A DNA stretch of 64,000 nucleotides from NCBI GenBank assembly GCA_017550285.1, contig JAFZPP010000021.1, forward strand, positions 21,874 to 85,873, written 5' to 3'. The translations under genes and the position numbers were made by a program. This DNA comes from Oscillospiraceae bacterium. GTDB lineage: Bacteria; Bacillota; Clostridia; Oscillospirales; Ruminococcaceae. Every line of letters starts with the position of its first letter. The stretch's first letter is position 1. The notes under the pieces are model-generated. The model searched no databases and was not told the DNA's origin. It saw only the letters and a list, made by a program, of their open reading frames with translations. This document shows positions 483 to 45,174 of this stretch, piece by piece.

Positions 483-950
483 ATGAAAAAGAAAGGTTTT
501 ACCCTGATTGAGCTGATCGTTGTTATCGCGATCATCGGCGTTCTGGCAGCTATCCTCGTTCCGGCAATGCTCGGTTACGTGAGAAAGTCCAAGATCACCA
601 CCGCTAACACCACTGCGAAGTCTATCTACAACGCATACAACACTGCGCTGGTTGACCTCGATACAATTGATAAGTCGCCGAAGTCTTTGGTCACTCATAC
701 CACTTTTCAGAGCGGCGAAGGCTTTAGTTCTAAAGCTGATGGTTCGCTTGAGAAGACCGTTTACGGCTACTTCACTGATATCGCTAAGGTTAAGCAGTTT
801 GCTTGCAAGTTTGAGGATGGCGCATGCACCGCTTGCGGCGTTCTGAACGGCAACTATCCGGGTTCTTATCCGAATCCGTTCTCGCCGGACAACTACAAGG
901 GCAAGACTTCTGTCAGTGATGTTCTTGCTGGTGGTACTGCCAAATCCTGA
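483..950 (+). CDS. type IV pilin-like protein (prepilin-type N-terminal cleavage/methylation domain), paralogue 1
   Basis: RBS GAGGAGG at 466-472. MKKKGFTLIELIVVIAIIGVLAAILVP is the class III signal (G|FTLIE). The ORF-track start at 453 was trimmed to the ATG at 483. Confidence 0.9.
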   Translation: MKKKGFTLIELIVVIAIIGVLAAILVPAMLGYVRKSKITTANTTAKSIYNAYNTALVDLDTIDKSPKSLVTHTTFQSGEGFSSKADGSLEKTVYGYFTDIAKVKQFACKFEDGACTACGVLNGNYPGSYPNPFSPDNYKGKTSVSDVLAGGTAKS

Positions 951-32549: not shown

Positions 32550-34598
32550 TCAGGAACGGTTGAATGCCAAAACGGCTTCGTAGCACATATAAACGTCGAT
32601 CTTACTGACGACCTCAAACGGTGCGTGCATCGAGAGCACCGGAACGCCGACATCAACCGTATCAATATTCAGGTTTGCGAGATAGGCAGCGACCGTACCG
32701 CCGCCGCCGAGATCGACCTTGCCGAGCTCACCGGTCTGCCAGATCACGCCTGCCTCATCAAAGAGCGTGCGCATCTTTCCGATAAATTCCGCAGAAGCAT
32801 CCGAGGAGCCGCTCTTGCCGCGCGCGCCGGTATACTTCATCATGCATACGCCGTAATTGATATATGCGCAGTTTCTGCGGTCATTCACATCGGCAAAGGT
32901 CGGATCGAATGCAGCCGTCACATCCGCAGAAAGGCACTGCGAATTGGCAAAGACCGTATGCGCCTCCGTGCCGAATGCAGCCGCCAGATCCTTCATGAAA
33001 TGACAGAAATACGCAGACTGCAAGCCGGTATTGCCCTCGCTGCCGATTTCTTCCTTATCGGTCAGAATGACGACGGCAGTATGCTGCGGATGCTCGGTCG
33101 CAAGCAGTGCTGCCAGCGACGGATATGCGCAGACGCGGTCATCATGCCCGTATGCGCCGATCATGCTGCGGTCAAAGCCGAGATCACGCGCACTGCCTGC
33201 CGGAACGATCTCCAGCTCGGCAGAGAGGAAATCCGCCTCGGTGATGCCGTATTTTTCATTGAGAATCTGCATAATGCGCAGCTTGACAAGCTCGCTGCCC
33301 TCATCGCTGCGGAACGGACGCGAACCGATCAGCAGATTGAGCTCCTCGCCCTTGATGCCCTGCGCGAGGGTACGCTTGACCTGCTCCTGTGCCAGATGCG
33401 GCAGCAGATCGGTCACGCAGAAGACCGGATCGGCAGGGTCCTCGCCGACCGTAATCTGCACGACAGAGCCGTCCTTCTTTGCGACAACGCCGTGCAGTGC
33501 CAGCGGCAGAACCGTCCACTGATATTTCTTGATTCCGCCGTAATAATGCGTTTTGAGCAGTGCAAGCTCACCGTCCTCATAGAGCGGCATCTGCTTGAGA
33601 TCGAGACGCGGCGAGTCGATATGTGCCGCAGAAAGCCGGATGCCGTCCTCGAGCGGCTCGCTGCCGATCACCGCCGCGATGATCGCCTTGCCGCGGTTGC
33701 AGGTGTAAATCTTATCGCCTGCCTTGACCGCGTCACCGCGCTTCCAGAGCCGGAAGCCCTGCTTCTCCAGCAGCTCTGCGGCATAGGAAGCCGCCTCACG
33801 TTCTGTTTTTCCGTGATCGAGGAAGGTCTTATAGCCCTCGCAGAATGCATCGCATTCCGCAATTTTCGCATCATCGAGCAGCAGCGCTGCATTCTTTTTC
33901 TGCATCAGCAGAGATTCCTTCAAAGTCTTGACTGCATCCTGATTTTCCAAAGTGAGTTCCTCCTTGTCGATTGTATGAGATTCAAAATATATTTCCGCCT
34001 GCTGCCGCAGCATCCGGACAACCTGTCCGACTGCCTCTGTCAGCGCGGCTTCACTTCCGTTATTTTCAATGACAGCATCGGAATGCGCGCGGAAGAATTC
34101 CTCCGGATGCTGTGCATTCATGCGCTGCTCCGCCTGTGTATCCGTCAGCGCATCTCGTTCGATAATCCGCGTCCGCCGCACATCACGCGGCGCAATTACG
34201 GAGATGACGGCTTCGCAAAAGCGGTCGATGCCGCTCTCGAACAGCGTCGGCGCATCGAGCAGAATGATGCGGCTGCCGTTTTCTGCATAGTGCTCCGCCT
34301 GCTGCCGGATCATCCGCGTAATATACGGATAGATGATTGCCTGATACCGCGCCCGTGCTGCTTCGTCACTGAAAATCAGCGAAGCAACGGCTTTCCGGTT
34401 CATCTGACCGTCCGGCAGAAGAATGCTGTCGCCGAAGACACGCTGCATTGCCAGCAGGCAGGATGAACCGCGTCCGACAACCTGCCGCGCGACGGTATCC
34501 GCATTGATGACTGCGATGCCTTCCGCTTCAAACAGCCTGCTGACGGTTGTCTTGCCGGCACCGGTCTGACCGGTCAGCCCGACGAGATAACTGTTCAC
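32550..34598 (-). CDS. coaE: in-frame fusion of dephospho-CoA kinase (N-terminal ~200 aa) and an M18-family aminopeptidase (C-terminal ~465 aa)
   Basis: CoaE P-loop GLTGQTGAGKTT. M18 signatures HIDSPRLDLK, HYYGGIKKYQW, GAYGHDDRVCAY, DKEEIGSEGNTG and LSMHAPFE. GTG start. No stop codon between the two halves. Confidence 0.85.
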   Translation of the reverse strand: MNSYLVGLTGQTGAGKTTVSRLFEAEGIAVINADTVARQVVGRGSSCLLAMQRVFGDSILLPDGQMNRKAVASLIFSDEAARARYQAIIYPYITRMIRQQAEHYAENGSRIILLDAPTLFESGIDRFCEAVISVIAPRDVRRTRIIERDALTDTQAEQRMNAQHPEEFFRAHSDAVIENNGSEAALTEAVGQVVRMLRQQAEIYFESHTIDKEELTLENQDAVKTLKESLLMQKKNAALLLDDAKIAECDAFCEGYKTFLDHGKTEREAASYAAELLEKQGFRLWKRGDAVKAGDKIYTCNRGKAIIAAVIGSEPLEDGIRLSAAHIDSPRLDLKQMPLYEDGELALLKTHYYGGIKKYQWTVLPLALHGVVAKKDGSVVQITVGEDPADPVFCVTDLLPHLAQEQVKRTLAQGIKGEELNLLIGSRPFRSDEGSELVKLRIMQILNEKYGITEADFLSAELEIVPAGSARDLGFDRSMIGAYGHDDRVCAYPSLAALLATEHPQHTAVVILTDKEEIGSEGNTGLQSAYFCHFMKDLAAAFGTEAHTVFANSQCLSADVTAAFDPTFADVNDRRNCAYINYGVCMMKYTGARGKSGSSDASAEFIGKMRTLFDEAGVIWQTGELGKVDLGGGGTVAAYLANLNIDTVDVGVPVLSMHAPFEVVSKIDVYMCYEAVLAFNRS

Positions 34599-34636
34599 TC
34601 TGATACGCTCACATCCTTTCCGTCAGTTCCTGCTAT

Positions 34637-34666
34637 ATTATATCACAATCCGCAAATAAAAGTCAA
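34637..34666 (-). promoter_or_regulatory. promoter of the coaE-fusion gene
   Basis: On the minus strand: TTGACT, 18 nt spacer, TATAAT. It lies immediately downstream of repeat copy C. Confidence 0.5.
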
Positions 34667-34716
34667 GGCGGCGGGCTGTGCCCGCATCCCGCATCCATTG
34701 ATCTGAAGCCCGCCGG
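34667..34716. repeat. GC-palindrome/GATCTAAAG dispersed repeat, copy C
   Basis: ggcggcgggctgtgcccgcatcccgcatccattgatctgaagcccgccgg. Confidence 0.75.
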
Positions 34717-34776
34717 AGACGCAGGATGCAGAAATAGTTGACTATGCTTCAATCAGGCAATGCTTTTTTCAGAACA

Positions 34777-34808
34777 GGCGGGCAGTGCCCGCATCCATTG
34801 ATCTAAAG
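34777..34808. repeat. GC-palindrome/GATCTAAAG dispersed repeat, copy D
   Basis: ggcgggcagtgcccgcatccattgatctaaag. This copy lacks the distal CCCGCCGG arm. A degenerate half-site cagcgggcagtgctccgg lies at ~34898. Confidence 0.75.
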
Positions 34809-34835
34809 ATCTGGTAAGCATTCTGCAAACGAAGT

Positions 34836-34875
34836 CTATTCTCTTCTCCTTCCTCTATCCTCCTTTTACTCTGCA
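34836..34875. repeat. polypyrimidine (CT-rich) tract, the complement of an SD-like GGA-rich tract
   Basis: ctattctcttctccttcctctatcctccttttactctgc. It sits in the same position relative to the dispersed repeat as the 11417-11512 tract. Confidence 0.7.
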
Positions 34876-34949
34876 AATTCCATGATAATATGCGATCAGC
34901 GGGCAGTGCTCCGGTTCGTCAGCTGCTGCAAAAAGATACCGCTCTCTGC

Positions 34950-34978
34950 TTGCTTTTTTCGTGATTATATGGTATAAT
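34950..34978 (+). promoter_or_regulatory. ruvC promoter
   Basis: TTGCTT, 17 nt spacer, TATAAT, with TGG as an extended -10. Confidence 0.55.
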
Positions 34979-35010
34979 AGAATAGACTACTTATGGGAGG
35001 CTGAAAAAAC

Positions 35011-35490
35011 ATGCGGATTCTCGGGATTGATCCGGGCTATGCAACGGTCGGATTCGGCATTGTCGATTATCAGGGCATGGATTTCCGGACGGTCGAGTTC
35101 GGCGCGATCCTGACACCGGCACATACCGATTTCAACGGCAGGCTGCTCCAGATCTACGATGACATGGATTTTCTCCTCTCCCGTTACCGGCCGCAGGTTA
35201 TGGCGGTCGAAAAGCTCTATTTCAATACCAATAAAACGACCGGCATCATGGTTGCTGAGGCGCGCGGCGTGATTCTGCTCGCGTGCGCAAAGCATCAGAT
35301 TCCCGTTTCGGAATATACGCCCTTGCAGGTCAAATCCGCTGTCGTCGGATACGGCAAGGCGGAAAAGCAGCAGGTCATGGATATGACGCGGCGGATTCTG
35401 CATCTCAGCGAGGTGCCGAAGCCTGATGATGCCGCGGATGCGCTGGCGCTGGCAATCTGTCACGGACACTGCGCCAAGCCGGATTACTGA
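35011..35490 (+). CDS. ruvC: crossover junction endodeoxyribonuclease RuvC
   Basis: MRILGIDPGYATVGFGIV... plus conserved acidic catalytic residues. Confidence 0.93.
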   Translation: MRILGIDPGYATVGFGIVDYQGMDFRTVEFGAILTPAHTDFNGRLLQIYDDMDFLLSRYRPQVMAVEKLYFNTNKTTGIMVAEARGVILLACAKHQIPVSEYTPLQVKSAVVGYGKAEKQQVMDMTRRILHLSEVPKPDDAADALALAICHGHCAKPDY

Positions 35491-35509
35491 TCGCAACGGA
35501 GGAACAGCT

Positions 35510-36112
35510 TTGATAGACCATATTCGCGGAAAGGTTTCCCATAAGGAGCCGAATCTTGTCGTAATCGAATGCGGCGGCATCGGATATGCCTGCCGGACAA
35601 GCATGCAGACGGCTGCGGCGGTCGGTGCCGCGGGCGAGGAGACACTGCTCTATACGCGCATGACCGTTCGTGAGGACGAAATTGCGCTGTACGGCTTCTC
35701 TGAACGCAGCGAACGCAGTTGCTTTGATCAGCTGACAGGCATTTCCGGTGTCGGACCGAAGGCGGCGCTTGCCATTCTTTCCGATTTTACGCCTGACCGC
35801 TTTGCGCTGGCAGTTGCGGCAGGAGACTATAAGCAATTCACGAAGACCAAGGGAATCGGCGCAAAGACCGCACAGCGGATTGTGCTGGAACTCAAGGATA
35901 AGGTCGCAAAATCCGTGCAGAGCGAGGGACTTCCCGCTGCACCGGTGACAGTCGGCAGCGGCAGTCTCGAGGAGGCGATGAGCGCTTTGCAGGTGCTCGG
36001 CTATTCGCAGAGTGAGGTTGCAGGTGTGTTGGCTTCGCTCGACCCGTCGCTTTCTTCTTCGGAGCTGATCCGGCTTTCGCTTTTGCAGCTCGGCAAAAAC
36101 ATGTTCAAATAA
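35510..36112 (+). CDS. ruvA: Holliday junction branch migration complex subunit RuvA
   Basis: TTG start 7 nt after GGAGGA. LIDHIRGKV...VVIECGGIGY... and the HhH region GISGVGPKAALAIL. Confidence 0.9.
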   Translation: MIDHIRGKVSHKEPNLVVIECGGIGYACRTSMQTAAAVGAAGEETLLYTRMTVREDEIALYGFSERSERSCFDQLTGISGVGPKAALAILSDFTPDRFALAVAAGDYKQFTKTKGIGAKTAQRIVLELKDKVAKSVQSEGLPAAPVTVGSGSLEEAMSALQVLGYSQSEVAGVLASLDPSLSSSELIRLSLLQLGKNMFK

Positions 36113-36204
36113 GCAGCGGTACTGCATGGGAAAGTACAGATGAAATATGCGGCAAAGGCAGGATTCTGCATCTGCCGATACAGACAATCAGGAGGACAAA
36201 TCAT

Positions 36205-37380
36205 ATGAATCACAACAGAAAAACAGCTTTGATCTTCGCGGCGCTGCTCGGTGCAGGCGTTCTGACGTCCTGCGGCGGCGATTTGCAGCAGGCTGCCGAT
36301 ACGCGCAGCATGGTCGCGGAGCAGAGAATCATGCCGGCAGCAGCCGAGGATATGCGCGGCGACTTGAACGGTGACGGCGCACAGGATGCTGCGGACGCAC
36401 AGCTGCTCTTGCAGTATTATGCAGAGAATACGCTGGCAGGCAATTCGCTGACATGGGATCAGCTGCTCGGTGCAGCAAGCTCCGAGGCTGCGGATCAGGC
36501 TGCGGCAAAGCGTGCGCTGAAGCGCTATCTGGATGCAGCCGCGGAAGGCGATACGCTGGGCATGATCGAAGCGTCCGGTCTGGGCGATCTGCTGCGCATG
36601 ACAAAAGGCAATATGAAAACAAATGAGGAGCTTGCTGCGGACGACGGGCTGACAGTCAACAAGATTGACAGCTATACAATCGGGGAGCCGAAAACGGATG
36701 CGCAGATGCTCAAGGAGTATCAGGAGGAGACCGAGAAGGCACTGGAAGAGGCAAGAGCCGTTGTTGCAGATAACAAGGCGGCTGCATCCGACATCCGCAC
36801 TGCATTCCTGACACTCTCCATGGTGAAGCCGCTGACCAAGATGTATGCTTTTCCGGTTACGCTGACGCAGGAGGGAAAAACTACAGAGGATGCGGTTCTG
36901 ATGACCTGTGACGAAAAGGGGGAATGGCGCGTCGATGCAGGCGTGGTGACCTCGCTTGTCAGATACATCACGAAGGCGAGAAAATCCTCCGTGAATACAG
37001 CCGCCAAGACCGTTTACAATGCGGTTTCCAGTGCGATGACTGATATGGACAGTCAGGATGTGAAGGTCAAGCTGCTCAACGGTGATTATATCTTTACCGG
37101 CGCGGATTTTGAGAATGTGACGCAGCAGATGAATCTCGGCGCATCCACGACCAAGGAGCAGCAGCTTGCACAGCTCAAATATCTGATCTCGAAATATTTT
37201 CCGACTGCCTCGGAGCTCGGTATGATCAGTGTCCGGCTTCAGGACGGCATCTGCATTGCCGTGGCGGTGCAGAAGGAATTTTCCGATGACATACTGATCG
37301 GCACCTATCCGCGGGTCGAGGACATTCCGGAAGGGATGAGCGTCACGGAAGCAATGCAGAAAGCAGCCGAAAAAGGCTGA
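36205..37380 (+). CDS. lipoprotein with one dockerin-like Ca-binding repeat and a C-terminal domain homologous to the heads of pilins 483-950 and 1113-1694
   Basis: Lipobox LTSC. GDLNGDGAQDAADAQLLLQYY. The C-terminal YITKARKSSVNTAAKTVYNAVSSAMTDMD...YFPTASELGMISVRLQDGICIAV...GTYP aligns with pilin YVR(K/R)SKITTAN.AAKS(I/V)YNA...YF.D....L.D..C...G.YPG.YP. Confidence 0.8.
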   Translation: MNHNRKTALIFAALLGAGVLTSCGGDLQQAADTRSMVAEQRIMPAAAEDMRGDLNGDGAQDAADAQLLLQYYAENTLAGNSLTWDQLLGAASSEAADQAAAKRALKRYLDAAAEGDTLGMIEASGLGDLLRMTKGNMKTNEELAADDGLTVNKIDSYTIGEPKTDAQMLKEYQEETEKALEEARAVVADNKAAASDIRTAFLTLSMVKPLTKMYAFPVTLTQEGKTTEDAVLMTCDEKGEWRVDAGVVTSLVRYITKARKSSVNTAAKTVYNAVSSAMTDMDSQDVKVKLLNGDYIFTGADFENVTQQMNLGASTTKEQQLAQLKYLISKYFPTASELGMISVRLQDGICIAVAVQKEFSDDILIGTYPRVEDIPEGMSVTEAMQKAAEKG

Positions 37381-37474
37381 GCAGATAAAACAGCCATAGA
37401 GAGATAGAAATGCGGCGTGAGACGACCGTAACTGCATTATGTGCAGATCATGATTTGAACGGAGGACAAAGAGG

Positions 37475-38173
37475 ATGAATCATCTGAAAAAAGGAATCTG
37501 CGGCATCATTGTGCTGACGCTCTGCGCCGGTATGCTGACAGGCTGCGGAAACAAACCGGAGACAGCAGAAACGGAAAGCAAGCCTGCTGCATCGGAATCT
37601 GCGGCGGCACCGGCTGAAACGGATGCTGCGGCAGAATCGCTGAGCGAGGTGCAGGAATCTGCGGATGAAGCCGCTGCCAAGGAAAAGCTGACCGCTTTTC
37701 TGGAGGGATGCAGGAATCATGATCTCGACGCGATCCTGTCTGTTGCCGATTACAGCGGACTGTATCAGGCACTTGAGGGGGATGCGTTCGATGAGGCACA
37801 GTTCCGGCAGGAGCTGGAAGCAATGCTCTGCGATTCGTTTGAATCCTATTCCGTCGGGGAACTGACAAGCAGCTATCAGGACCTCGTGACCTTCAACGGC
37901 AATGTCAGCAGTTTTCTCAAGGAAATGGAGGAGGAGCCTGCGGTTCCCGATGACGAGGAGACGCTCCGGCTTATCGGATACGCAAAGCAGACGATGAAGC
38001 CTGCGGATAACCGCTGTGCCTTTGCCGTCACGGTCAATGCGGGCGGAACGGAGACAACCGACGATCTCGTGATGCTCCGCTGCGGTGATACATGGCAGCT
38101 CGATCTTGTCACCGAAACCGCGACCCGCATCTATCAGAACCGCGTATACAACGCCGGACAGCAGCAGGAATAA
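37475..38173 (+). CDS. hypothetical lipoprotein
   Basis: Lipobox LTGC, an acidic/Ala-rich spacer, then a ~150-aa domain. No family recognised. Confidence 0.7.
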   Translation: MNHLKKGICGIIVLTLCAGMLTGCGNKPETAETESKPAASESAAAPAETDAAAESLSEVQESADEAAAKEKLTAFLEGCRNHDLDAILSVADYSGLYQALEGDAFDEAQFRQELEAMLCDSFESYSVGELTSSYQDLVTFNGNVSSFLKEMEEEPAVPDDEETLRLIGYAKQTMKPADNRCAFAVTVNAGGTETTDDLVMLRCGDTWQLDLVTETATRIYQNRVYNAGQQQE

Positions 38174-38302
38174 GGCATCATTCAGGAGGAAACACCCTGC
38201 CGGACGGGGCAATACCGGAGCATCCGTCCGGCATACATCGCAGCAAAGCAGCTGCAAATATAATCAATTCAGTATTAACTGAAAAAAAGGGAGGATCTGG
38301 CT

Positions 38303-39028
38303 ATGAATCTTGACGAATTACTGAAGGAAGCGATTACGAAACCGGAAAAGCGTTCGCTGTTTTTGCAAATGCTCATCAAAAGCGATGTGTATGTCATCTG
38401 CAAGAAGCCCGTCAAGCAGGATGAAATTAACGGCGGTGTTTCCATGGAGCTGGTGACAACGCAGAATCCGGACGGCGATATCTTTATCCCGTTCTTCACG
38501 AGCTACCGCTCTTTGCAGCAGTTTGCCAAGCGCTATGTCAACTGCTACCGCCTGAACTGTCTGCGCCTGTTTGATCTGATCCAGTCTGCCAATGCCGTGC
38601 TGAATCCGAATTCCTACGGCAAGGAATTTTCTTCGCAGGAGATCAAGAGTATCCTCATGGTTGCGCGGAATCTGAATATTCCGGCGATCTCCATGAAGGA
38701 GGAGGAAACGATTGAATACCGCCGCAATCAGAAGGACCTCGATCATCTGATCCGGCCGCTGACGCGCTATCTTGCCAGACAGGCGAATGTCGATGCCTGT
38801 TATCTGGTCGAAATGGTGCGCGGATGCGAAAGGCCGCAGACGCTCTTTGTATTTGACATGAGCGGCAATACGCGCAAGCTGTTCTTCCCGCTCTCCAAGT
38901 ACATGCAGAGCTATACCAAATCGGGCGACTCACTGGTGTTTATCAGTCTGGAGGAGCCTGCCGCAAAGAAAGCCGTCAAGGGAATTGATCCCTTCTATAT
39001 CCGCAAAAAGCGCTTCTTTGAGCGCTGA
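38303..39028 (+). CDS. SseB-family protein
   Basis: Collinear with E. coli SseB: LDELLKEAITKPEKRSLFLQMLIKSDVYV, IFIPFFTSYRSLQQF, LNPNSYGKEFSSQEI and a C-terminal ...DPFYIRKKRFF. Confidence 0.85.
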   Translation: MNLDELLKEAITKPEKRSLFLQMLIKSDVYVICKKPVKQDEINGGVSMELVTTQNPDGDIFIPFFTSYRSLQQFAKRYVNCYRLNCLRLFDLIQSANAVLNPNSYGKEFSSQEIKSILMVARNLNIPAISMKEEETIEYRRNQKDLDHLIRPLTRYLARQANVDACYLVEMVRGCERPQTLFVFDMSGNTRKLFFPLSKYMQSYTKSGDSLVFISLEEPAAKKAVKGIDPFYIRKKRFFER

Positions 39029-39048
39029 ACACGAAAGGAGCAGACATT

Positions 39049-39294
39049 ATGCCGCCGAAATCCAAACCGACAACAACCCACAATGCACCCGAAAAACCTG
39101 CGGAGGCTGCAAAGGATACAGCCGAAAAGCAGTCTGAGCTCAAGCCCGCCGCAAAGGCGATTGCATCCGCAGCCTCTGCCGTTTCTTCTGCGGCAAACGC
39201 TGCAAAATCCGCTGCCGCCGCTGCATCTGCCGCCGTTTCTGCGGTTGCAGCACCGGCAAAAAAGGATGAATCTCACAAAGCTGAGAAAAAGTAA
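39049..39294 (+). CDS. small Ala/Lys-rich low-complexity protein starting MPPKSKP
   Basis: RBS AAAGGAG. It shares the MPP(K/S)x(K/R)P N-terminus with the next two genes. Confidence 0.55.
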   Translation: MPPKSKPTTTHNAPEKPAEAAKDTAEKQSELKPAAKAIASAASAVSSAANAAKSAAAAASAAVSAVAAPAKKDESHKAEKK

Positions 39295-39338
39295 GGAAAC
39301 CCGACAACAGATGTCTTTGACATGAAAGGAGTTCAAAA

Positions 39339-39989
39339 ATGCCGCCCAGCAGCAGACCTTCAAGTTCCCATTCCTCGAGGCCCTCGTCGTCTCATTCTTC
39401 GCACTCGTCCCATTCTTCCCATTCGTCGCATCATTCTTCCTATTCGCATCATTCCGGCGGATATCATCACAGCCCGCCGCATCATTATCATCACCCGCCG
39501 CATCATCATTCCGGCTACGGATATTCCGGCGGATACGGACGCCGTCATTACAGCGGCGGCAATTCGCTCCTCGGAAGCTGCGTCAGCGTGATTGCATTTG
39601 CGCTGCTGATTGTTTTCATTGCCGTTGTTGTTGTACTGAACAAGGACAAAATCGGACAGAATCACAATACCGGAAACAATAACAATCAGGCTGTTATTTC
39701 CGAGCAGCATCAGGATATTTATGTCCCTGCGCTCGGCAGAGATGTGCCGTGGAGCACGCAGTATGACAGCTACTACGATAAGCAGACGGACTGCTATTTC
39801 TTCCTCAATACCGAAATGGACCCGCCGATCTGGCAGTATTGGTTTGAGGGCGTTTCGTCGCAGTACGGTGATTACGGCTGGCTCGAATGGGATGCAAGAG
39901 AGAGCCGCTGGTACGTTCAGAAGACGGAGACCAAATGGGAACCCCTGCCGGAGAAATATGCATCCGATCTATGGCATTTTGACAGCTGA
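39339..39989 (+). CDS. His/Ser-repeat single-pass membrane protein with a conserved Trp/Tyr-rich C-terminal domain, paralogue 1
   Basis: [42 protein letters not shown]..., His/Pro/Gly/Tyr-rich stretch, TM segment CVSVIAFALLIVFIAVVVVL, then [11 protein letters not shown]...[26 protein letters not shown]...GWLEWDARESRWYVQ...LWHFD. Confidence 0.8.
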   Translation: MPPSSRPSSSHSSRPSSSHSSHSSHSSHSSHHSSYSHHSGGYHHSPPHHYHHPPHHHSGYGYSGGYGRRHYSGGNSLLGSCVSVIAFALLIVFIAVVVVLNKDKIGQNHNTGNNNNQAVISEQHQDIYVPALGRDVPWSTQYDSYYDKQTDCYFFLNTEMDPPIWQYWFEGVSSQYGDYGWLEWDARESRWYVQKTETKWEPLPEKYASDLWHFDS

Positions 39990-40022
39990 CAGAATTTTTC
40001 AACAGAAAGGTAAGGGATGACC

Positions 40023-41051
40023 ATGCCACCGAAAGGCAGACCGAACAGTTCACATTCCTCGCGTCCGAGTTCTTCGGGACATTCTTCGCATTCGTCACAT
40101 TCTTCTCATTCTTCGCACTCGTCGCATTCCTCGCACAGCTCGTTTTCATCGCATCGCCCGTCGTCGCATCACAGTTACGGTGCGCCGCCTCCTCCGCAGC
40201 ATCACGGCTTCGGCGGATCACATCACGGTTACGGTGCACCGCCGCCTCCGCCTCCGCATCATCACAGCTCATCGGGCGGATTTCTGACGGGACTTGCAGT
40301 CGGCAGCGCGCTGAATCAGGCGCAGAATCAGAGCAGCACACCGACAACCGTTGTGAATCAGACGATTGTGCAGCAGCCGACAATCCGCAAATACAACTGC
40401 CCCTTCTGCGGCGGCAGAGTGGAGGGCAGATCCTCTGCAAACGGGCTTTCGTCGATGACCTGCCCGAACTGCGGCGGCATTCTGTCTGAGGGTGATGCCG
40501 TTGATGAGCCGGTGCAGCAGGTCGTGCAGACGCAGACGTATTCGCAGCCGGCAGCGGCGCCGCAGACCTATACGCGTGCGCCGGAGCAGCCGTATTATCC
40601 GCGGCAATCGTTCGGCGATAAGCTCAAATCCTGCTTCGGTACGATCCTTGCGTTTGTGATTATCGGCGCAATCGCGTTCGGCGGCTTCAAGTTCTATGAG
40701 TGGTATGACGGCAGACATCAGTACAGTCAGCCGTATTATGATGACGGCTACTACGATGAACGCCCCGAGCAGCATGATCCGGTTTATGTCCCTGCGCTCG
40801 GCAGAGATGTCCCGTGGGACAGCGAATATGACAGCTATTATGACAGACAGACGGACTGTTATTTCTTCCTCAATACCGATATGGATCCGCCGATCTGGCA
40901 GTATTGGTTTGAGGGTGTCTCGTCCGATTACGGCGATTACGGCTGGCTCGAATGGGATGCAAAGGAATCGCGCTGGTATGTGCAGATCCGTGAAAATCAA
41001 TGGGAGCCGCTGCCGGATGGAAAGGGTACAGGACTCTGGCATTTCGACTGA
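40023..41051 (+). CDS. His/Ser-repeat membrane protein with an internal zinc-ribbon and the same C-terminal domain, paralogue 2
   Basis: The start is set at the second ATG, giving MPPKGRP like its neighbours. (HSS)n repeat, CPFCGG...CPNCGG, TM segment [15 protein letters not shown]. The C-terminal ~88 aa are very similar to paralogue 1. Confidence 0.8.
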
Positions 41052-41076
41052 TACCTATGATCGGAGAACCGAATAC

Positions 41077-42153
41077 ATGATACAAACCGGAAACCCCGTG
41101 TTTGAGGAGGAGAATGAACGCCTCGCCAGCCCTGAGATCATTGCACAGGACGGCGATCTGGAGGTTTCGCTCCGCCCGAAAACACTCAATGATTATATCG
41201 GACAGGATCAGGTGAAGCAGAATCTCGCTGTCTATATCGAAGCGGCAAGGCGCCGCAGCGAGCCGCTTGACCATGTCCTGCTTTACGGTCCGCCGGGACT
41301 CGGCAAGACCACACTCTCCGGCATTATTGCACATGAGCTGGGCGTCAATCTGCGGATCACATCCGGTCCGGCGATTGAAAAGCCCGGCGATCTCGCCGCC
41401 CTGCTGACGAATCTCGGCAGGGGCGATGTGCTCTTTGTCGATGAGATTCACCGTCTTTCGCGTGCGGTCGAGGAGATTCTCTATCCGGCGCTGGAGGACA
41501 GAGCACTCGATATTATGATCGGAAAGGGTCCCTCTGCACGGTCGATCCGTGTGGATTTGCAGCCCTTTACGCTGGTCGGCGCGACGACAAGAGCCGGTCA
41601 GCTTTCCGCTCCGCTGCGCGACCGCTTCGGGATTGTGCAGCGGCTGGAGCTCTATACGCCGGAGCAGCTCTGCGATATCATCCGCAGAAGTGCGATGCTG
41701 CTCGATATTCCGTGCGAAACGGACGGCGCCATGGAGCTTGCAAGACGTTCGCGCGGTACGCCGCGTATCGCAAACCGCCTGCTGCGCAGAGTCCGCGATT
41801 TTGCGGATGTGCTCGGTACGGGCGTGATTGATGCAAAAACTACCCGTGAGGCGCTGGAACGCCTCGAAATCGACGAGCTCGGACTGGATAAGCTCGATCA
41901 CCGGCTTCTGGATATGATGATCCGCGGCTATCACGGCGGTCCGGTCGGACTGGAAACGCTTGCTTCTGCAATCGGTGAGGAGGCGGTCACGCTCGAGGAT
42001 GTCTGCGAGCCGTATCTGATGCAGCTCGGTATGCTTGCGCGGACACCGCGCGGCAGAGTTGCAACGCAGCTTGCCTATCAGCACCTCGGATATCCCTTGG
42101 AAGCAGGTACTGCCGGTCAGCAGTATTCGCTGACAGATATGCTCGGCGGCTGA
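41077..42153 (+). CDS. ruvB: Holliday junction branch migration DNA helicase RuvB
   Basis: The start was trimmed to [12 protein letters not shown] (RBS GGAGAA). [13 protein letters not shown], Walker [11 protein letters not shown] and sensor motifs. Confidence 0.95.
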
Positions 42154-42177
42154 GCCGCAGCCGAACGGAGGATGCGT

Positions 42178-42735
42178 ATGAGCCTCTTGCCAAAACAGAA
42201 TTACAGATTCAATCGGGAGATACCGCTGCCGGAAGGTCTGATCAACGGTCAGGCGCTGGGAGCGGTATCAGGTATGAAATTCGGTCTTTCCAATATGAGC
42301 CGCAGCGGCTGCGAGGTCATTGCGATTTACAATGCACTGCTGCTGCATCACCGTCCGGCACCGTTTCTGGAAATCGCACGCTATATGGAGCGGTTTCGGG
42401 TGCTGCTCGGCTTTTGGGGTGCCAATTTTCTGTCGCTCGGGCACTGCTTAAAGCACTACGGCTTGCGGGCGGTGCGCGTCCGTCAGCCGCAGAAGGTGGA
42501 GGATGCGCTTCTGGCAGGCAGAACGGTCGTCTATGTGTACTGGGTCAAAAAGCGATTTCGTTCCTCGGTGCATACGGTCGTGCTGCAAAAGGGCAGGGAT
42601 GTTCTCTGCGTTTACAATGCGTATAACCGATGCGGTCATGTGCTGCATATCGGAATGGAAGATTATCTCCGGAACCGGAATATGATCTTCGGCTATATCA
42701 TCGAACAGGATTCGGAAAAAAATATAGGAGCGTAG
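42178..42735 (+). CDS. hypothetical protein (possible Cys/His papain-like fold, weak)
   Basis: RBS GGAGG. Candidate ...MSRSGCEVIAIYNAL... Cys and ...SSVHTVVL... His. No confident family. Confidence 0.6.
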   Translation: MSLLPKQNYRFNREIPLPEGLINGQALGAVSGMKFGLSNMSRSGCEVIAIYNALLLHHRPAPFLEIARYMERFRVLLGFWGANFLSLGHCLKHYGLRAVRVRQPQKVEDALLAGRTVVYVYWVKKRFRSSVHTVVLQKGRDVLCVYNAYNRCGHVLHIGMEDYLRNRNMIFGYIIEQDSEKNIGA

Positions 42736-42741
42736 GGTCAG

Positions 42742-43095
42742 ATGATTACCTTCAATGAAACCTATGATGCGTATATACTGGAGCAGGACGGGATTCTGTT
42801 CCGCTGGGAGGAACAGCCGGATGCAGCTGCGGAGGCTGCCGCCGCGGATACTGCCGCTGCGTATCACAAGAATATCCGCGAGATTGCGGAATTTCTCATT
42901 GATGATTTGATCCGCGGCATCTGGGGCATCAGCGATCCCGAGCAGGTGATTGCGATGCTCGGCAGACCGCAGATTGCACCTGCACTGCGGCAGGTTGTTT
43001 ACTGTGAGCATCTGTTTGACAAGCTGCATGTCATCAGCTTTGAGTATCTGGATGATGAATTCTTGCAGCTCCATGCGGTCGATCTCGACGGCTGA
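42742..43095 (+). CDS. hypothetical protein
   Basis: 117-aa ORF with RBS AGGAG. No family recognised. Confidence 0.6.
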   Translation: MITFNETYDAYILEQDGILFRWEEQPDAAAEAAAADTAAAYHKNIREIAEFLIDDLIRGIWGISDPEQVIAMLGRPQIAPALRQVVYCEHLFDKLHVISFEYLDDEFLQLHAVDLDG

Positions 43096-43107
43096 TCGGG
43101 GGACGGT

Positions 43108-43746
43108 ATGGCGTTTGATTATAAAAAGGAATACAAAGAGTATTATCAGCCGCCGAAGAAGCCTGCGCTCATTGAGATTCCGCCGATGCATTTTCTGGCG
43201 GTGCGCGGCAAGGGCAATCCGAATGCGGAGGACGGCGCGTATCAGCAGGCGCTCTCCAGGCTCTACGGCGTCGCATTTACGCTGCGGATGAGCCGGAAGG
43301 CGGGGAAGAATATCGAAGGGTATTTTGAATATGTCGTGCCGCCGCTGGAGGGACTCTGGCAGCAGAACGGCAGTCCGGACGGCAGCTTCGATTACAGCCG
43401 CAAGGACGATCTTTCGTGGATTTCGATGATCCGTCTGCCGGATTTTATCACCGAAGCAGATGTGCAGTGGGCAATCGCAGAGGTGCAGCGGAAGAAGCAG
43501 CTTGACTGCTCCGGCGTCGAATTCTTTACCTATGACGAGGGGCTCTGCGTGCAGGTCATGCACATCGGCAGCTATGACAGTGAGCCGGAAACAATCGCGC
43601 AGATGACAAAGTATCTGACAGAACAGGGCTGCATCGCAGATCATTCCGAAACCAGAATGCACCATGAAATCTATCTGAGTGATCCGCGGAAAGCTGCACC
43701 GGAGAAGCTGAAAACAGTGATCCGGATTCCGGTGAAGCGAATCTGA
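43108..43746 (+). CDS. GyrI-like small-molecule-binding domain protein
   Basis: ...PPMHFLAVRGKGNP...YGVAFTLR...VPPLEGLW...CVQVMHIGSYD.E...HHEIYLSDPRK... is the typical GyrI-like/effector-binding pattern. Confidence 0.8.
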   Translation: MAFDYKKEYKEYYQPPKKPALIEIPPMHFLAVRGKGNPNAEDGAYQQALSRLYGVAFTLRMSRKAGKNIEGYFEYVVPPLEGLWQQNGSPDGSFDYSRKDDLSWISMIRLPDFITEADVQWAIAEVQRKKQLDCSGVEFFTYDEGLCVQVMHIGSYDSEPETIAQMTKYLTEQGCIADHSETRMHHEIYLSDPRKAAPEKLKTVIRIPVKRI

Positions 43747-43785
43747 ATGCAGCAGAAAACGAGGCAACATAAGGGGTGAGAGGAT

Positions 43786-45174
43786 ATGAGCAGATTTTTG
43801 CGGCAGGAGGGTCTGCGCGGCGTGGCAATCACGGAGATTACCTGTGAGCTGATGCTGCGGCTCGGCAGAGCGGCGGCACAGGCAATCGGCAGAACGAGCA
43901 ATCATCCGCCGGTGTTTTATATTTCGCATGATCCGCGGCGCGCGGCAGAGGCGCTGGAAGCGGCGCTCTGTGCCGGTATCTGCGCAGGCGGCGGCATTGC
44001 CCATACGCTCGGCGTTCTGCCCTCATCGGGGCTTGCGCTGATGCTCTCCGCAGAGGATGCGGAGGCGGGGATTGCGCTTTCGGGCGGCAATCTGCCCTAT
44101 GAATCGGTCTGTGTGCGGCTCTTTGCTAAGAGCGGTCTGCCGATGTCCTCAGAGCAGCTTGATGCGATTTCCGCGCTGATGCCCTCGAATGCGGCTATGC
44201 CTCTGAAATCACACCAGAACTGCGGCTATATCGCGCGGCAGGATGATGCATCGCGGCGGTATCTGCGCCTGCTGGCGGCGCGGCTGAGTACGCCGACCGA
44301 CTTAAAGCAGAGCAAGCCGCTCCGGATTGCACTCGATTGCGCAAACGGCGCGGTCAGCGATCTGGCAGAGCCGCTTTTCCGGCATCTCGGTGCGGAGGTG
44401 CTGCTGCTGAACGATCACCCCGACGGCATGAATATCAACCGCGACTGCGGTGTGCAGTCCATGTCGCAGCTGATACAGTTTGTCAAGGATTATAATTGCA
44501 GCGCAGGCTTTGCATTCGACGGCAACGGCGGCAGATGCCTTGCGGTTGATGAGAGCGGTGAGCTGCTCGACGGCGACCGGATGCTTGCGATTCTCTGTGA
44601 GGAGCAGCTTGCCCTGCAAAAGGATGCGCCCGCCGGCAGACCCGATGTCATGCAGCGCGGTGTCGCCGCAACGGTGATGTCGAATCTCGGCTTTCTGCGC
44701 TATGCAAAATCGCGCGGCATTCCCGTACAGAGTACGCAGCCTGCGCCGCAGTTTGTGCTCGATAAGATGCGCAATCTCGGGCTGGCGCTCGGCGGAGACG
44801 GCTCCGGTTATCTGTATTTTGCGGATGTACCTGCGCCGGACGGACTCATGACCGCAGCGAGACTTTTGCAGGTCATGCAGCGGACGGGCAAGCTGCTCGG
44901 GACGCTCTCGAATGTCATGGAATATGATCCGCAGGTCGCGGTGTCGGTCAAGATTCCGCAGCACTGGCGCGAAATCTGGAAGAACGATCCGGATATCACG
45001 GGATTTATCTCCGCATGTGAGGCGGAGCTTGGAACCGAGGGCAGAATTCTCGTCCGCGAACGAAGGGACGATGCGTCGATCCGCATTATGCTCGAGGGCA
45101 GGGATTTCCGGCGGATCAACAGCTATGCATTTGCGATTGAGGAAGCAATCAAATCAAGGACAAGTGCCAAATAG
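43786..45174 (+). CDS. phosphoglucosamine mutase (alpha-D-phosphohexomutase) homologue with degenerate catalytic loops
   Basis: Collinear with GlmM, but the phosphoserine loop is SGGNLP, the metal loop FDGNGGR, the sugar loop GGDGSGY and the phosphate loop RERRDDASIR. Confidence 0.75.
   Translation: MSRFLRQEGLRGVAITEITCELMLRLGRAAAQAIGRTSNHPPVFYISHDPRRAAEALEAALCAGICAGGGIAHTLGVLPSSGLALMLSAEDAEAGIALSGGNLPYESVCVRLFAKSGLPMSSEQLDAISALMPSNAAMPLKSHQNCGYIARQDDASRRYLRLLAARLSTPTDLKQSKPLRIALDCANGAVSDLAEPLFRHLGAEVLLLNDHPDGMNINRDCGVQSMSQLIQFVKDYNCSAGFAFDGNGGRCLAVDESGELLDGDRMLAILCEEQLALQKDAPAGRPDVMQRGVAATVMSNLGFLRYAKSRGIPVQSTQPAPQFVLDKMRNLGLALGGDGSGYLYFADVPAPDGLMTAARLLQVMQRTGKLLGTLSNVMEYDPQVAVSVKIPQHWREIWKNDPDITGFISACEAELGTEGRILVRERRDDASIRIMLEGRDFRRINSYAFAIEEAIKSRTSAK

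Follow-up and report, generated by a model that had tools for sequence, protein, structure and literature searches.

Genes at the locus

The stretch of DNA analysed here, referred to as the window, comprises 64,000 nucleotides (nt) of an Oscillospiraceae bacterium (GenBank assembly GCA_017550285.1, contig JAFZPP010000021.1, positions 21,874 to 85,873 of the forward strand), and the subject of this study is a set of three adjacent open reading frames (ORFs), ORF1, ORF2 and ORF3, at positions 39,049 to 41,051 of the window. As the original prediction described, all three lie on the + strand and open with MPP(K/S)x(K/R)P (MPPKSKP in ORF1, MPPSSRP in ORF2 and MPPKGRP in ORF3), and each is preceded by a Shine–Dalgarno sequence: GGAG is found 7–8 nt ahead of the ORF1 and ORF2 starts, and in ORF3, which has a second in-frame ATG at 40017, the MPP start at 40023 is the better spaced from an AAGGG Shine–Dalgarno sequence. 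Among the 832 ATG-started ORF candidates of at least 60 amino acids (aa) in the window, six begin with MPP, and three of these six are the adjacent ORF1–3. Judged from their sequences, ORF2 and ORF3 appear to represent a family of single-pass membrane proteins that has not been described before, ORF2 as its short form and ORF3 as its long, zinc-ribbon-containing form; both have a small aromatic-rich domain at the C-terminus. The coordinates of the three genes, their parts and their neighbours are collected in Table 1; a promoter/terminator scan gave no convincing internal terminator.

Table 1. Features of the ORF1–3 locus, in window coordinates (TM, transmembrane; KD19, hydrophobicity value; pLDDT, predicted local distance difference test score).
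Feature	Position	Strand	Description
ruvA	35426..36112	+	Upstream flank of the ruvA-sseB-ruvB backbone; context
Lipoprotein-like genes (paralogous pair)	36205-37380 and 37475-38173	+	Between ruvA and sseB
SseB-family gene	38303..39028	+	PF07179 E=6e-19, PF14581 E=4e-16; context, not specific to the MPP family
ORF1	39049..39294	+	81 aa, predicted soluble, Ala/Lys-rich
ORF2	39339..39989	+	216 aa, short paralogue, predicted bitopic membrane protein
ORF2 cytoplasmic tail	39339..39566	+	aa 1-76; start peptide MPPSSRPSSSHSS, HSS repeats, His/Tyr/Gly/Pro-rich stretch
ORF2 TM helix	39567..39638	+	aa 77-100; KD19 maximum 3.39; RR on the N side, acidic region on the C side
ORF2 ectodomain	39717..39986	+	aa 127-216; predicted all-beta, W/Y-rich, 22 aromatic residues in 89
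ORF3	40023..41051	+	342 aa from the MPP start, long paralogue
ORF3 cytoplasmic tail	40023..40274	+	aa 1-84, Ser/His/Pro/Gly-rich; opens with a 13-residue start peptide
ORF3 Cys4 zinc ribbon	40392..40484	+	aa 124-154, CPFC...CPNC
ORF3 TM helix	40623..40697	+	aa 201-225; KD19 2.25; helix in the AlphaFold2 model of a 263-aa segment
ORF3 ectodomain	40782..41048	+	aa 254-342; 79% identical to the ORF2 domain; pLDDT 87-97
ruvB	41077..42153	+	Downstream flank of the backbone; start 26 nt past the ORF3 stop codon
d187 (conserved gene after ruvB)	42172-42735		No Pfam or NCBIfam match

ORF2 and ORF3 as members of a membrane-protein family

The paralogy that had been proposed for ORF2 and ORF3 is borne out by their C-terminal domains, in which 74 of 94 residues (79%) are identical (BLASTP E=8e-58) and in which a codon comparison gave 55 identical, 19 synonymous and 20 non-synonymous positions. 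The accompanying claim, that the DNA of the two domains is nearly identical at its start, is only roughly true: the identity, 79% overall, does reach 96% in nt 94–141, but in the first 47 nt it is just 85%. At the other end, both proteins carry the shared 10-residue motif, followed by HSS triplets (six in ORF2 and eight in ORF3 within the first 60 aa), and the His/Pro/Gly/Tyr-rich segments reported for them, such as HHYHHPPHHH and an 11-residue stretch, are present as well; the 76 residues of the ORF2 tail include 27 Ser, 19 His and no Asp or Glu. Four features served as the working definition of the family, namely the start peptide, a tail rich in Ser, His or Arg, one TM helix and at least one copy of the C-terminal domain, and both ORF2 and ORF3 have all four. 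In ORF3 the tail is followed at aa 85–97 (40275–40313) by a short Gly-rich hydrophobic stretch, GGF[LF][TS]G[LM]xxGSxL, which is kept in the long paralogues. Its shortness and weak hydrophobicity rule out a TM helix, and its confidence in the AlphaFold2 model is low; the stretch may instead dip into the membrane or be amphipathic.

The family is small and confined to anaerobic Clostridia. A profile of the C-terminal domain recovered 248 representatives of 50% identity clusters at E<=1e-3 among 1.84 billion proteins, 220 of them at E<=1e-10, and in a species-representative collection, with one genome per species, 107 matches were confirmed by tblastn, all in Clostridia. The carriers include Ruminococcus, Oscillospiraceae, Lachnospiraceae, Saccharofermentans and Pseudobutyrivibrio and are mostly metagenome-assembled genomes from rumen or gut, together with a few cultured strains, such as Pseudobutyrivibrio sp. 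YE44, Lachnospiraceae bacterium NC2004, G11 and XBB2008, and Ruminococcaceae bacterium YAD3003; viral contigs held no relatives of the family, and the NCBI annotation of its members is 'hypothetical protein'. The same start peptide stands at the head of 86 of 90 homologous ORFs from other genomes, with the consensus M-P-(P)-S/K-x-[H/R/K]-[S/P]-S-S-S-H-S-S; the tract behind it is on average 47% Ser, and the SSSH anchor of the peptide is found at position 6–7 in 90 of 94 sequences. The order of the parts, from tail through zinc ribbon and TM helix to domain, is the same in 122 of 122 cases. A protein search with the tail alone collected 3155 candidates, none of them significant; this outcome reflects composition correction and shortened database entries, and it does not bear on whether the start peptide also heads other domains. 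The literature on SseB and on His-rich, Ser-rich, zinc-ribbon and Ruminococcus proteins yielded nothing relevant. The ectodomain, the start peptide and an extra cytoplasmic module found in many members (see below) are undescribed, and the overall layout is of a known kind.

ORF1 shares with ORF2 and ORF3 only the N-terminal peptide MPPKSKPTTTHNA (39049–39087), which is the one family feature that it has; it lacks a TM helix (maximum KD19 1.16). Orthologues of ORF1 are present, in frame, in six related genomes (L001, L005, L007, L008, L009 and L010; L-numbers denote loci from other genomes or metagenomes, and P-numbers below denote database protein entries), and they keep the start MPPKSKP(T/S)SSHS and the C-terminal KKDESHKAE. 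ORF1 may be a soluble carrier of the start-peptide motif, and possibly a competitor or adaptor.

Translation and conservation of the tails

The Ser/His-rich 5' regions could in principle be untranslated, with the real genes being short ORFs that start in or near the TM helix, and most database entries are indeed short. A domain search among 5.8 billion proteins gave 13 clusters called as 89–150 aa (P0001–P0013), in which the starts chosen by the gene callers are internal GTG or ATG codons within or near the TM helix, and the closest database entry to ORF3, P0193, was cut to 232 aa by the gene caller. However, comparative evidence already contradicts an untranslated tail, which we consider extremely improbable. 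The long reading frame is open far upstream in all 90 of the homologous ORFs from genomes, the start peptide is conserved and a good Shine–Dalgarno sequence precedes the MPP start, and in the long forms the conserved zinc ribbon itself lies upstream of the TM helix. Synonymous changes also outnumber non-synonymous ones: the ORF2 tail differs from that of L001 by 29 synonymous and eight non-synonymous codons and from that of L005 by 14 and five, respectively, and every indel relative to the orthologues comprises whole codons and stays in frame. These counts agree with the earlier view that the HSS repeat is held at the protein level. All six Ser codons and both His codons are in use within the repeats, and TRF found in them an imperfect 9-nt periodicity alone, with 70–80% matches. 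The TM helix and linker of ORF2 evolve fast (26 non-synonymous versus eight synonymous changes), and ORF1 differs from its L005 orthologue by 16 synonymous and six non-synonymous changes. Taken together, the comparative evidence shows that the genes are real and under purifying selection.

A full-length ORF2-type gene has been called in GCA_016280965.1. Calls of these genes nevertheless routinely lose the start peptide, the tail and, in ORF3, the zinc ribbon as well (39339–39566 in ORF2 and 40023–40622 in ORF3). Since the gene callers cut conserved N-terminal parts, the real proteins are under-represented in public protein sets.

Membrane topology and the cytoplasmic zinc ribbon

The single TM helix predicted earlier for each paralogue was recovered at aa 77–100 of ORF2 and aa 201–225 of ORF3. 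In ORF2 the N side of the helix carries four Lys/Arg and no Asp/Glu, and the C side seven Lys/Arg versus 18 Asp/Glu; the C side of ORF3 has eight Lys/Arg versus 25 Asp/Glu. The contexts in which the C-terminal domain occurs elsewhere bear on the same question. In P0045 a lipobox (LSGC) is followed by two domain copies, and in P0110 a signal peptide, Sel1 and DUF6273 stand ahead of the domain; in P0076, P0078 and P0100, which are Lachnospiraceae-type members, the domain is followed by PF18202, the TQ ester-bond domain from which the stalks of Gram-positive adhesins are built (30–34 bits against a cut-off of 23.8), as it is, weakly, in P0106. Because it is found on a lipoprotein and beside TQ adhesin stalk domains, the domain is taken to be extracytoplasmic. 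The arrangement put forward in the original prediction, in which the tail lies in the cytoplasm and the W/Y-rich domain beyond the membrane, is thus in line with the net positive N side and its Cys4 site, with the acidic C side and with the lipoprotein, signal-peptide and TQ contexts, and the predicted N-in/C-out topology of ORF2 and ORF3 is well supported.

The CPFCGG...CPNCGG motif of the longer paralogue was also found as described, and its four Cys are invariant in 38 homologues. A C4 zinc ribbon is expected to have two CxxC knuckles 15–25 residues apart, with conservation in related proteins and a beta-hairpin fold, and the ORF3 motif conforms to this: the AlphaFold2 model shows it as hairpins (pLDDT 67–81), and in a fold search the weak best matches of this model were zinc-ribbon ribosomal proteins and rubredoxin. 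The ribbon remained below the curated cut-off of every Pfam and NCBIfam zinc-ribbon family (Lar_restr_allev, Zn_ribbon_TFIIB, FmdB and others), with best scores of 17.3 bits against 28.6 in Pfam and 18.6 against 37 in NCBIfam. It is an optional part of the family, being present in 137 of 187 non-identical full-length members and absent from ORF2. Ahead of the ribbon, 108 of the 187 members carry an extra conserved cytoplasmic module, RxNQPxGY..HDYVYYPxxWTDxxTGxxYxxGYYDENGxxY (for example L035, 5287–6588; P0038; P0064), which has no Pfam match and is absent from ORF2 and ORF3.

The combination of a zinc-binding module in the cytoplasm with a single TM helix and a domain outside the cell would also suit a transmembrane signal transducer, in which the ectodomain would sense a cue and the ribbon and tail would relay it to a regulator, as in RsgI or the LytTR membrane inhibitors. 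RsgI anti-sigma-I factors of cellulolytic Clostridia are single-pass N-in/C-out proteins that combine a module for binding or sensing outside the cell with an effector part in the cytoplasm, and the layout of ORF2 and ORF3, in a family of fibre-degrading Clostridia, resembles theirs by analogy. In L035, L040, L041, L053 and L083 the family gene follows genes for a LytTR regulator, a small membrane protein and an ABC transporter, and a divergently oriented LytTR gene is found at L020. However, LytTR genes occur in six of about 80 loci, as clade-level synteny, and neither a sigma factor nor another regulator is a recurrent neighbour; the family lacks RsgI_N, an adjacent sigI-like gene and a recognizable carbohydrate-binding module, and Pfam gave no zf-HC2 or RsgI_N match. 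The ribbon, moreover, is missing from ORF2 and many other members (50 of 187), and where the domain occurs on a lipoprotein or a secreted protein, a cytoplasmic part is missing altogether. A role as signal transducers is thus considered unlikely.

The W/Y-rich ectodomain

Prediction with AlphaFold2 from a 14-sequence alignment gave a confident model of the ectodomain (pLDDT 92.5, predicted template-modelling score 0.83) with eight strands and two short helices. The domain is modelled with equal confidence in ORF3, and in that model the pLDDT drops below 50 in the linkers and at the end of the tail, which is Gly-rich. The domain is acidic, comprises about 90 aa of which 17 are invariant aromatic residues, has the consensus WQYW[YF]EG...GDYGW[LM]E[WY]D, and occurs in one to three copies per protein, in tandem. 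Its two halves were compared with hhalign for an internal duplication, which is not demonstrated (P=0.012 over 16 columns).

The earlier reading recognized no family for this domain, and none emerged here. Scans against Pfam (E<=10) and NCBIfam gave no match, and scans of ORF1–3 and of the isolated domain against PADLOC, PHROGs, Pfam and NCBIfam gave sub-threshold zinc-ribbon matches at most. A profile search of the PDB with the domain returned one chance match (E=1.5), and Foldseek searches with both models against the PDB, and with the domain model against BFVD, returned nothing at E<0.3, the domain model giving only E>1; the best TM-score normalized to the query was 0.37, for a partial alignment. 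The ectodomain is modelled as an all-beta fold that has no match among sequence or structural relatives in these searches.

The Ser/His-rich tails and metal binding

The original prediction suggested that the His-rich tails bind or buffer Ni, Zn or Co, which would place the proteins in metal homeostasis. Several properties of the window proteins fit: 19 of the 76 residues of the ORF2 tail are His, with runs like HHYHHPPHHH, ORF3 has 18 His within its first 90 residues and a Cys4 zinc site, the His richness is kept in the closest orthologues, and one His, that of SSSHSS, is fixed throughout the family. High His content with HH and HxH runs is likewise a mark of Hpn and of the C-termini of HypB, SlyD and UreE. 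Across the family, however, His is often exchanged for Arg, and for this reason metal binding is disfavoured as the core role. Within the first 60 residues the fractions of His and Arg vary inversely across the family (r=-0.48); among 111 tails, His makes up less than 8% in 29 and Arg at least 12% in 32. The neighbourhood contains no metal transporter, regulator or metalloenzyme, and none of the hydrogenase, urease or other metal context of those proteins; an Rfam scan of 34000–44000 gave no match, including no metal riboswitch; and the zinc ribbon is a structural site that ORF2 lacks. What the family conserves is a basic Ser-rich tail with one fixed His rather than a His cluster. The proposed function in metal binding or buffering is therefore not supported and is quite unlikely, and the ORF2 and ORF3 proteins of the window could still bind metal incidentally.

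The SseB-family gene and the ruvA-sseB-ruvB operon

The gene directly upstream of ORF1 belongs, as previously stated, to the SseB family (PF07179, 68.9 bits against a cut-off of 21; PF14581, 59.5 against 22.5). Its score against NCBIfam PRK11611, 70.9 bits, is below the equivalog cut-off of 295, so that it is a member of the family and not an equivalog of Escherichia coli SseB. The position of this gene hinted at a link with ORF1–3, and in a specific form of that idea the MPP...SSSHSS peptide would be a recognition signal for the adjacent SseB-like protein, which has a secretion-chaperone fold and would chaperone or target the products of ORF1–3. Three consecutive genes with the same start directly after sseB, one of which (ORF1) shares the peptide alone, are in keeping with such a relationship, and among the genome loci L001–L018 all 15 that are long enough to include sseB have an MPP gene downstream of it, at distances from 18–53 nt to a few hundred nt. 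L004 and L019 have family members located elsewhere in the genome.

The hinted link does not survive a wider comparison. Among 61 metagenomic loci retrieved with the SseB sequence of the window, ruvA-sseB-ruvB-d187 forms a conserved backbone, down to 60% SseB identity and about 50% RuvA identity, but in about 50 loci (SseB identity 60–94%) the gap from sseB to ruvB is 20–60 nt and contains no MPP gene; these include the close relatives L090, L091, L092, L094, L095 and L096, with SseB identities of 91–94%. Unrelated genes occupy the same junction in other genomes, and family members outside the Ruminococcus-like clade have no SseB gene within +/-4 kb, the span covered in those genomes, and lie in unrelated contexts. 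Recognition of the start peptide by SseB is therefore a very remote prospect. The backbone mostly occurs without MPP genes, and ORF1–3, like the lipoprotein genes between ruvA and sseB, are therefore accessory insertions into the ruvA-sseB-ruvB operon.

Both junctions of the backbone, ruvA|sseB (36113–38302) and sseB|ruvB (39029–41076), take lineage-specific cargo, which elsewhere consists of a 258-aa protein (L115 and L123), a 356-aa esterase-like lipoprotein (L139) or tandem repeats of about 130 nt (L112). The lipoprotein-like genes of the window (36205–37380 and 37475–38173) are fast-evolving, with 47–59% identity to their L001 copies, and weaker paralogous matches to them are found near the start of the window (555–860 and 1185–1547); aa 52–73 of the product of 36205–37380 contain a single PF00404 dockerin-like calcium-binding segment (E=0.0025). 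The occurrence of an SseB-family gene between ruvA and ruvB, followed by d187, in about 60 metagenomic loci (L087–L147) suggests a functional partnership, or co-regulation, between this SseB lineage and the RuvAB branch-migration genes.

Comparison with known systems

Focusing on the order of the parts, the closest counterparts of ORF3 are the bitopic zinc-ribbon proteins of Firmicutes (zinc_ribbon_2, DZR and Zn_ribbon_8), in which a CxxC...CxxC ribbon in the N-terminal, cytoplasmic part is likewise joined by a low-complexity linker to a single TM helix, with the C-terminal domain outside the cell. Matches to these families are sub-threshold only, the ribbon is optional in the present family, and those proteins have nothing that corresponds to the start peptide, the Ser/His tail or the ectodomain. 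FtsN comprises a cytoplasmic tail, a TM helix, a Q/N-rich linker and a small C-terminal wall-binding SPOR domain, and ORF2, with the N/Q-rich linker NHNTGNNNNQ before its domain of about 90 aa, is analogous to it in the order of these parts. However, there is no likeness to SPOR in sequence or fold and no division-gene context, and the low-complexity tail is much longer than that of FtsN.

The ectodomain may be compared with the cell-wall-binding and choline-binding repeats (PF01473 and PF19127), with which it shares aromatic beta hairpins, extracellular location and tandem copies, its own motifs being YYDxxTDCYF and GWxEYDxxExxWY. It has no Pfam match to them at E<=10 and no fold match, and the likeness between its own halves is weak and non-significant. 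The tails differ from serine-rich repeat adhesins in that the Ser tract stands at the extreme N-terminus before the sole TM helix, with no signal peptide or LPXTG, and in that the neighbours are ruvA, sseB and ruvB instead of secA2/secY2/gtf. In composition only, the pre-TM stretch HHSGYGYSGGYGRRHYSGG of ORF2 and a 17-residue stretch of ORF3 are analogous to the GHGxY repeats of the histidine-rich beak proteins (HBPs) of squid, the His/Tyr/Gly 'sticker and spacer' composition of which gives rise to pH-dependent coacervation (PMC6884462); unlike the HBPs, the ORF2 and ORF3 tails would be membrane-tethered, cytoplasmic and bacterial.

Possible function

The picture that we favour, tentatively and at somewhat less than even confidence, is that of a binding module at the cell surface, anchored to a disordered platform in the cytoplasm. 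ORF2 and ORF3 would expose outside the membrane a compact all-beta domain that is acidic and rich in aromatic residues, and this domain may act as a binding module with a glycan or cell-envelope polymer as its most likely ligand. Inside the cell, the long, disordered, basic tail, rich in Ser and His (or Arg), would form an interaction platform, in ORF3 together with the zinc ribbon, and the start peptide would serve as a short linear motif for a cytoplasmic partner; the three genes would have entered the conserved ruvA-sseB-ruvB operon as accessory insertions. High aromatic content and tandem copies are typical of binding modules such as carbohydrate-binding and cell-wall-binding domains, and it is on account of the aromatic-rich composition, the tandem copies and the adhesin and lipoprotein contexts that a glycan or envelope polymer appears to be the most plausible ligand.

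Several points weigh against this picture. The domain shows no likeness to carbohydrate-binding or cell-wall-binding families in Pfam (E<=10) or by fold, and the aromatic argument concerns the composition of the sequence and not exposure in the model coordinates. No ligand, partner or phenotype was found for the family in the literature, and outside the Ruminococcus-like clade no gene neighbourhood recurs from which a pathway might be guessed. The start peptide, moreover, could serve translation initiation or protein stability instead of partner binding.

A bolder variant takes the start peptide and tail together as a new bacterial cytoplasmic low-complexity module, which we regard as distinctly improbable. 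One possibility is a condensate-forming tail, switchable by pH or phosphorylation, which would cluster the receptors at the membrane upon binding by the ectodomain; another is an N-terminal targeting signal of a new kind, for which a dedicated factor in the cytoplasm would be the reader.

Conclusion

In conclusion, this study delimits a family of putative single-pass membrane proteins that is well defined and taxonomically narrow, and its value lies in this delimitation rather than in a mechanistic discovery, the metal and SseB leads having failed. The family marks an annotation blind spot in fibre-degrading rumen and gut Clostridia, as a conserved N-terminal third of its members is routinely cut off by gene callers. 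Its ectodomain of about 90 aa may be a new kind of surface-binding domain, and it is unusual in bacteria for a low-complexity tail to be headed by a strictly conserved start peptide. If the tail were indeed to form condensates, or the start peptide to act as a targeting signal, the family would represent a new mechanism of surface-to-cytoplasm coupling specific to rumen and gut Clostridia.

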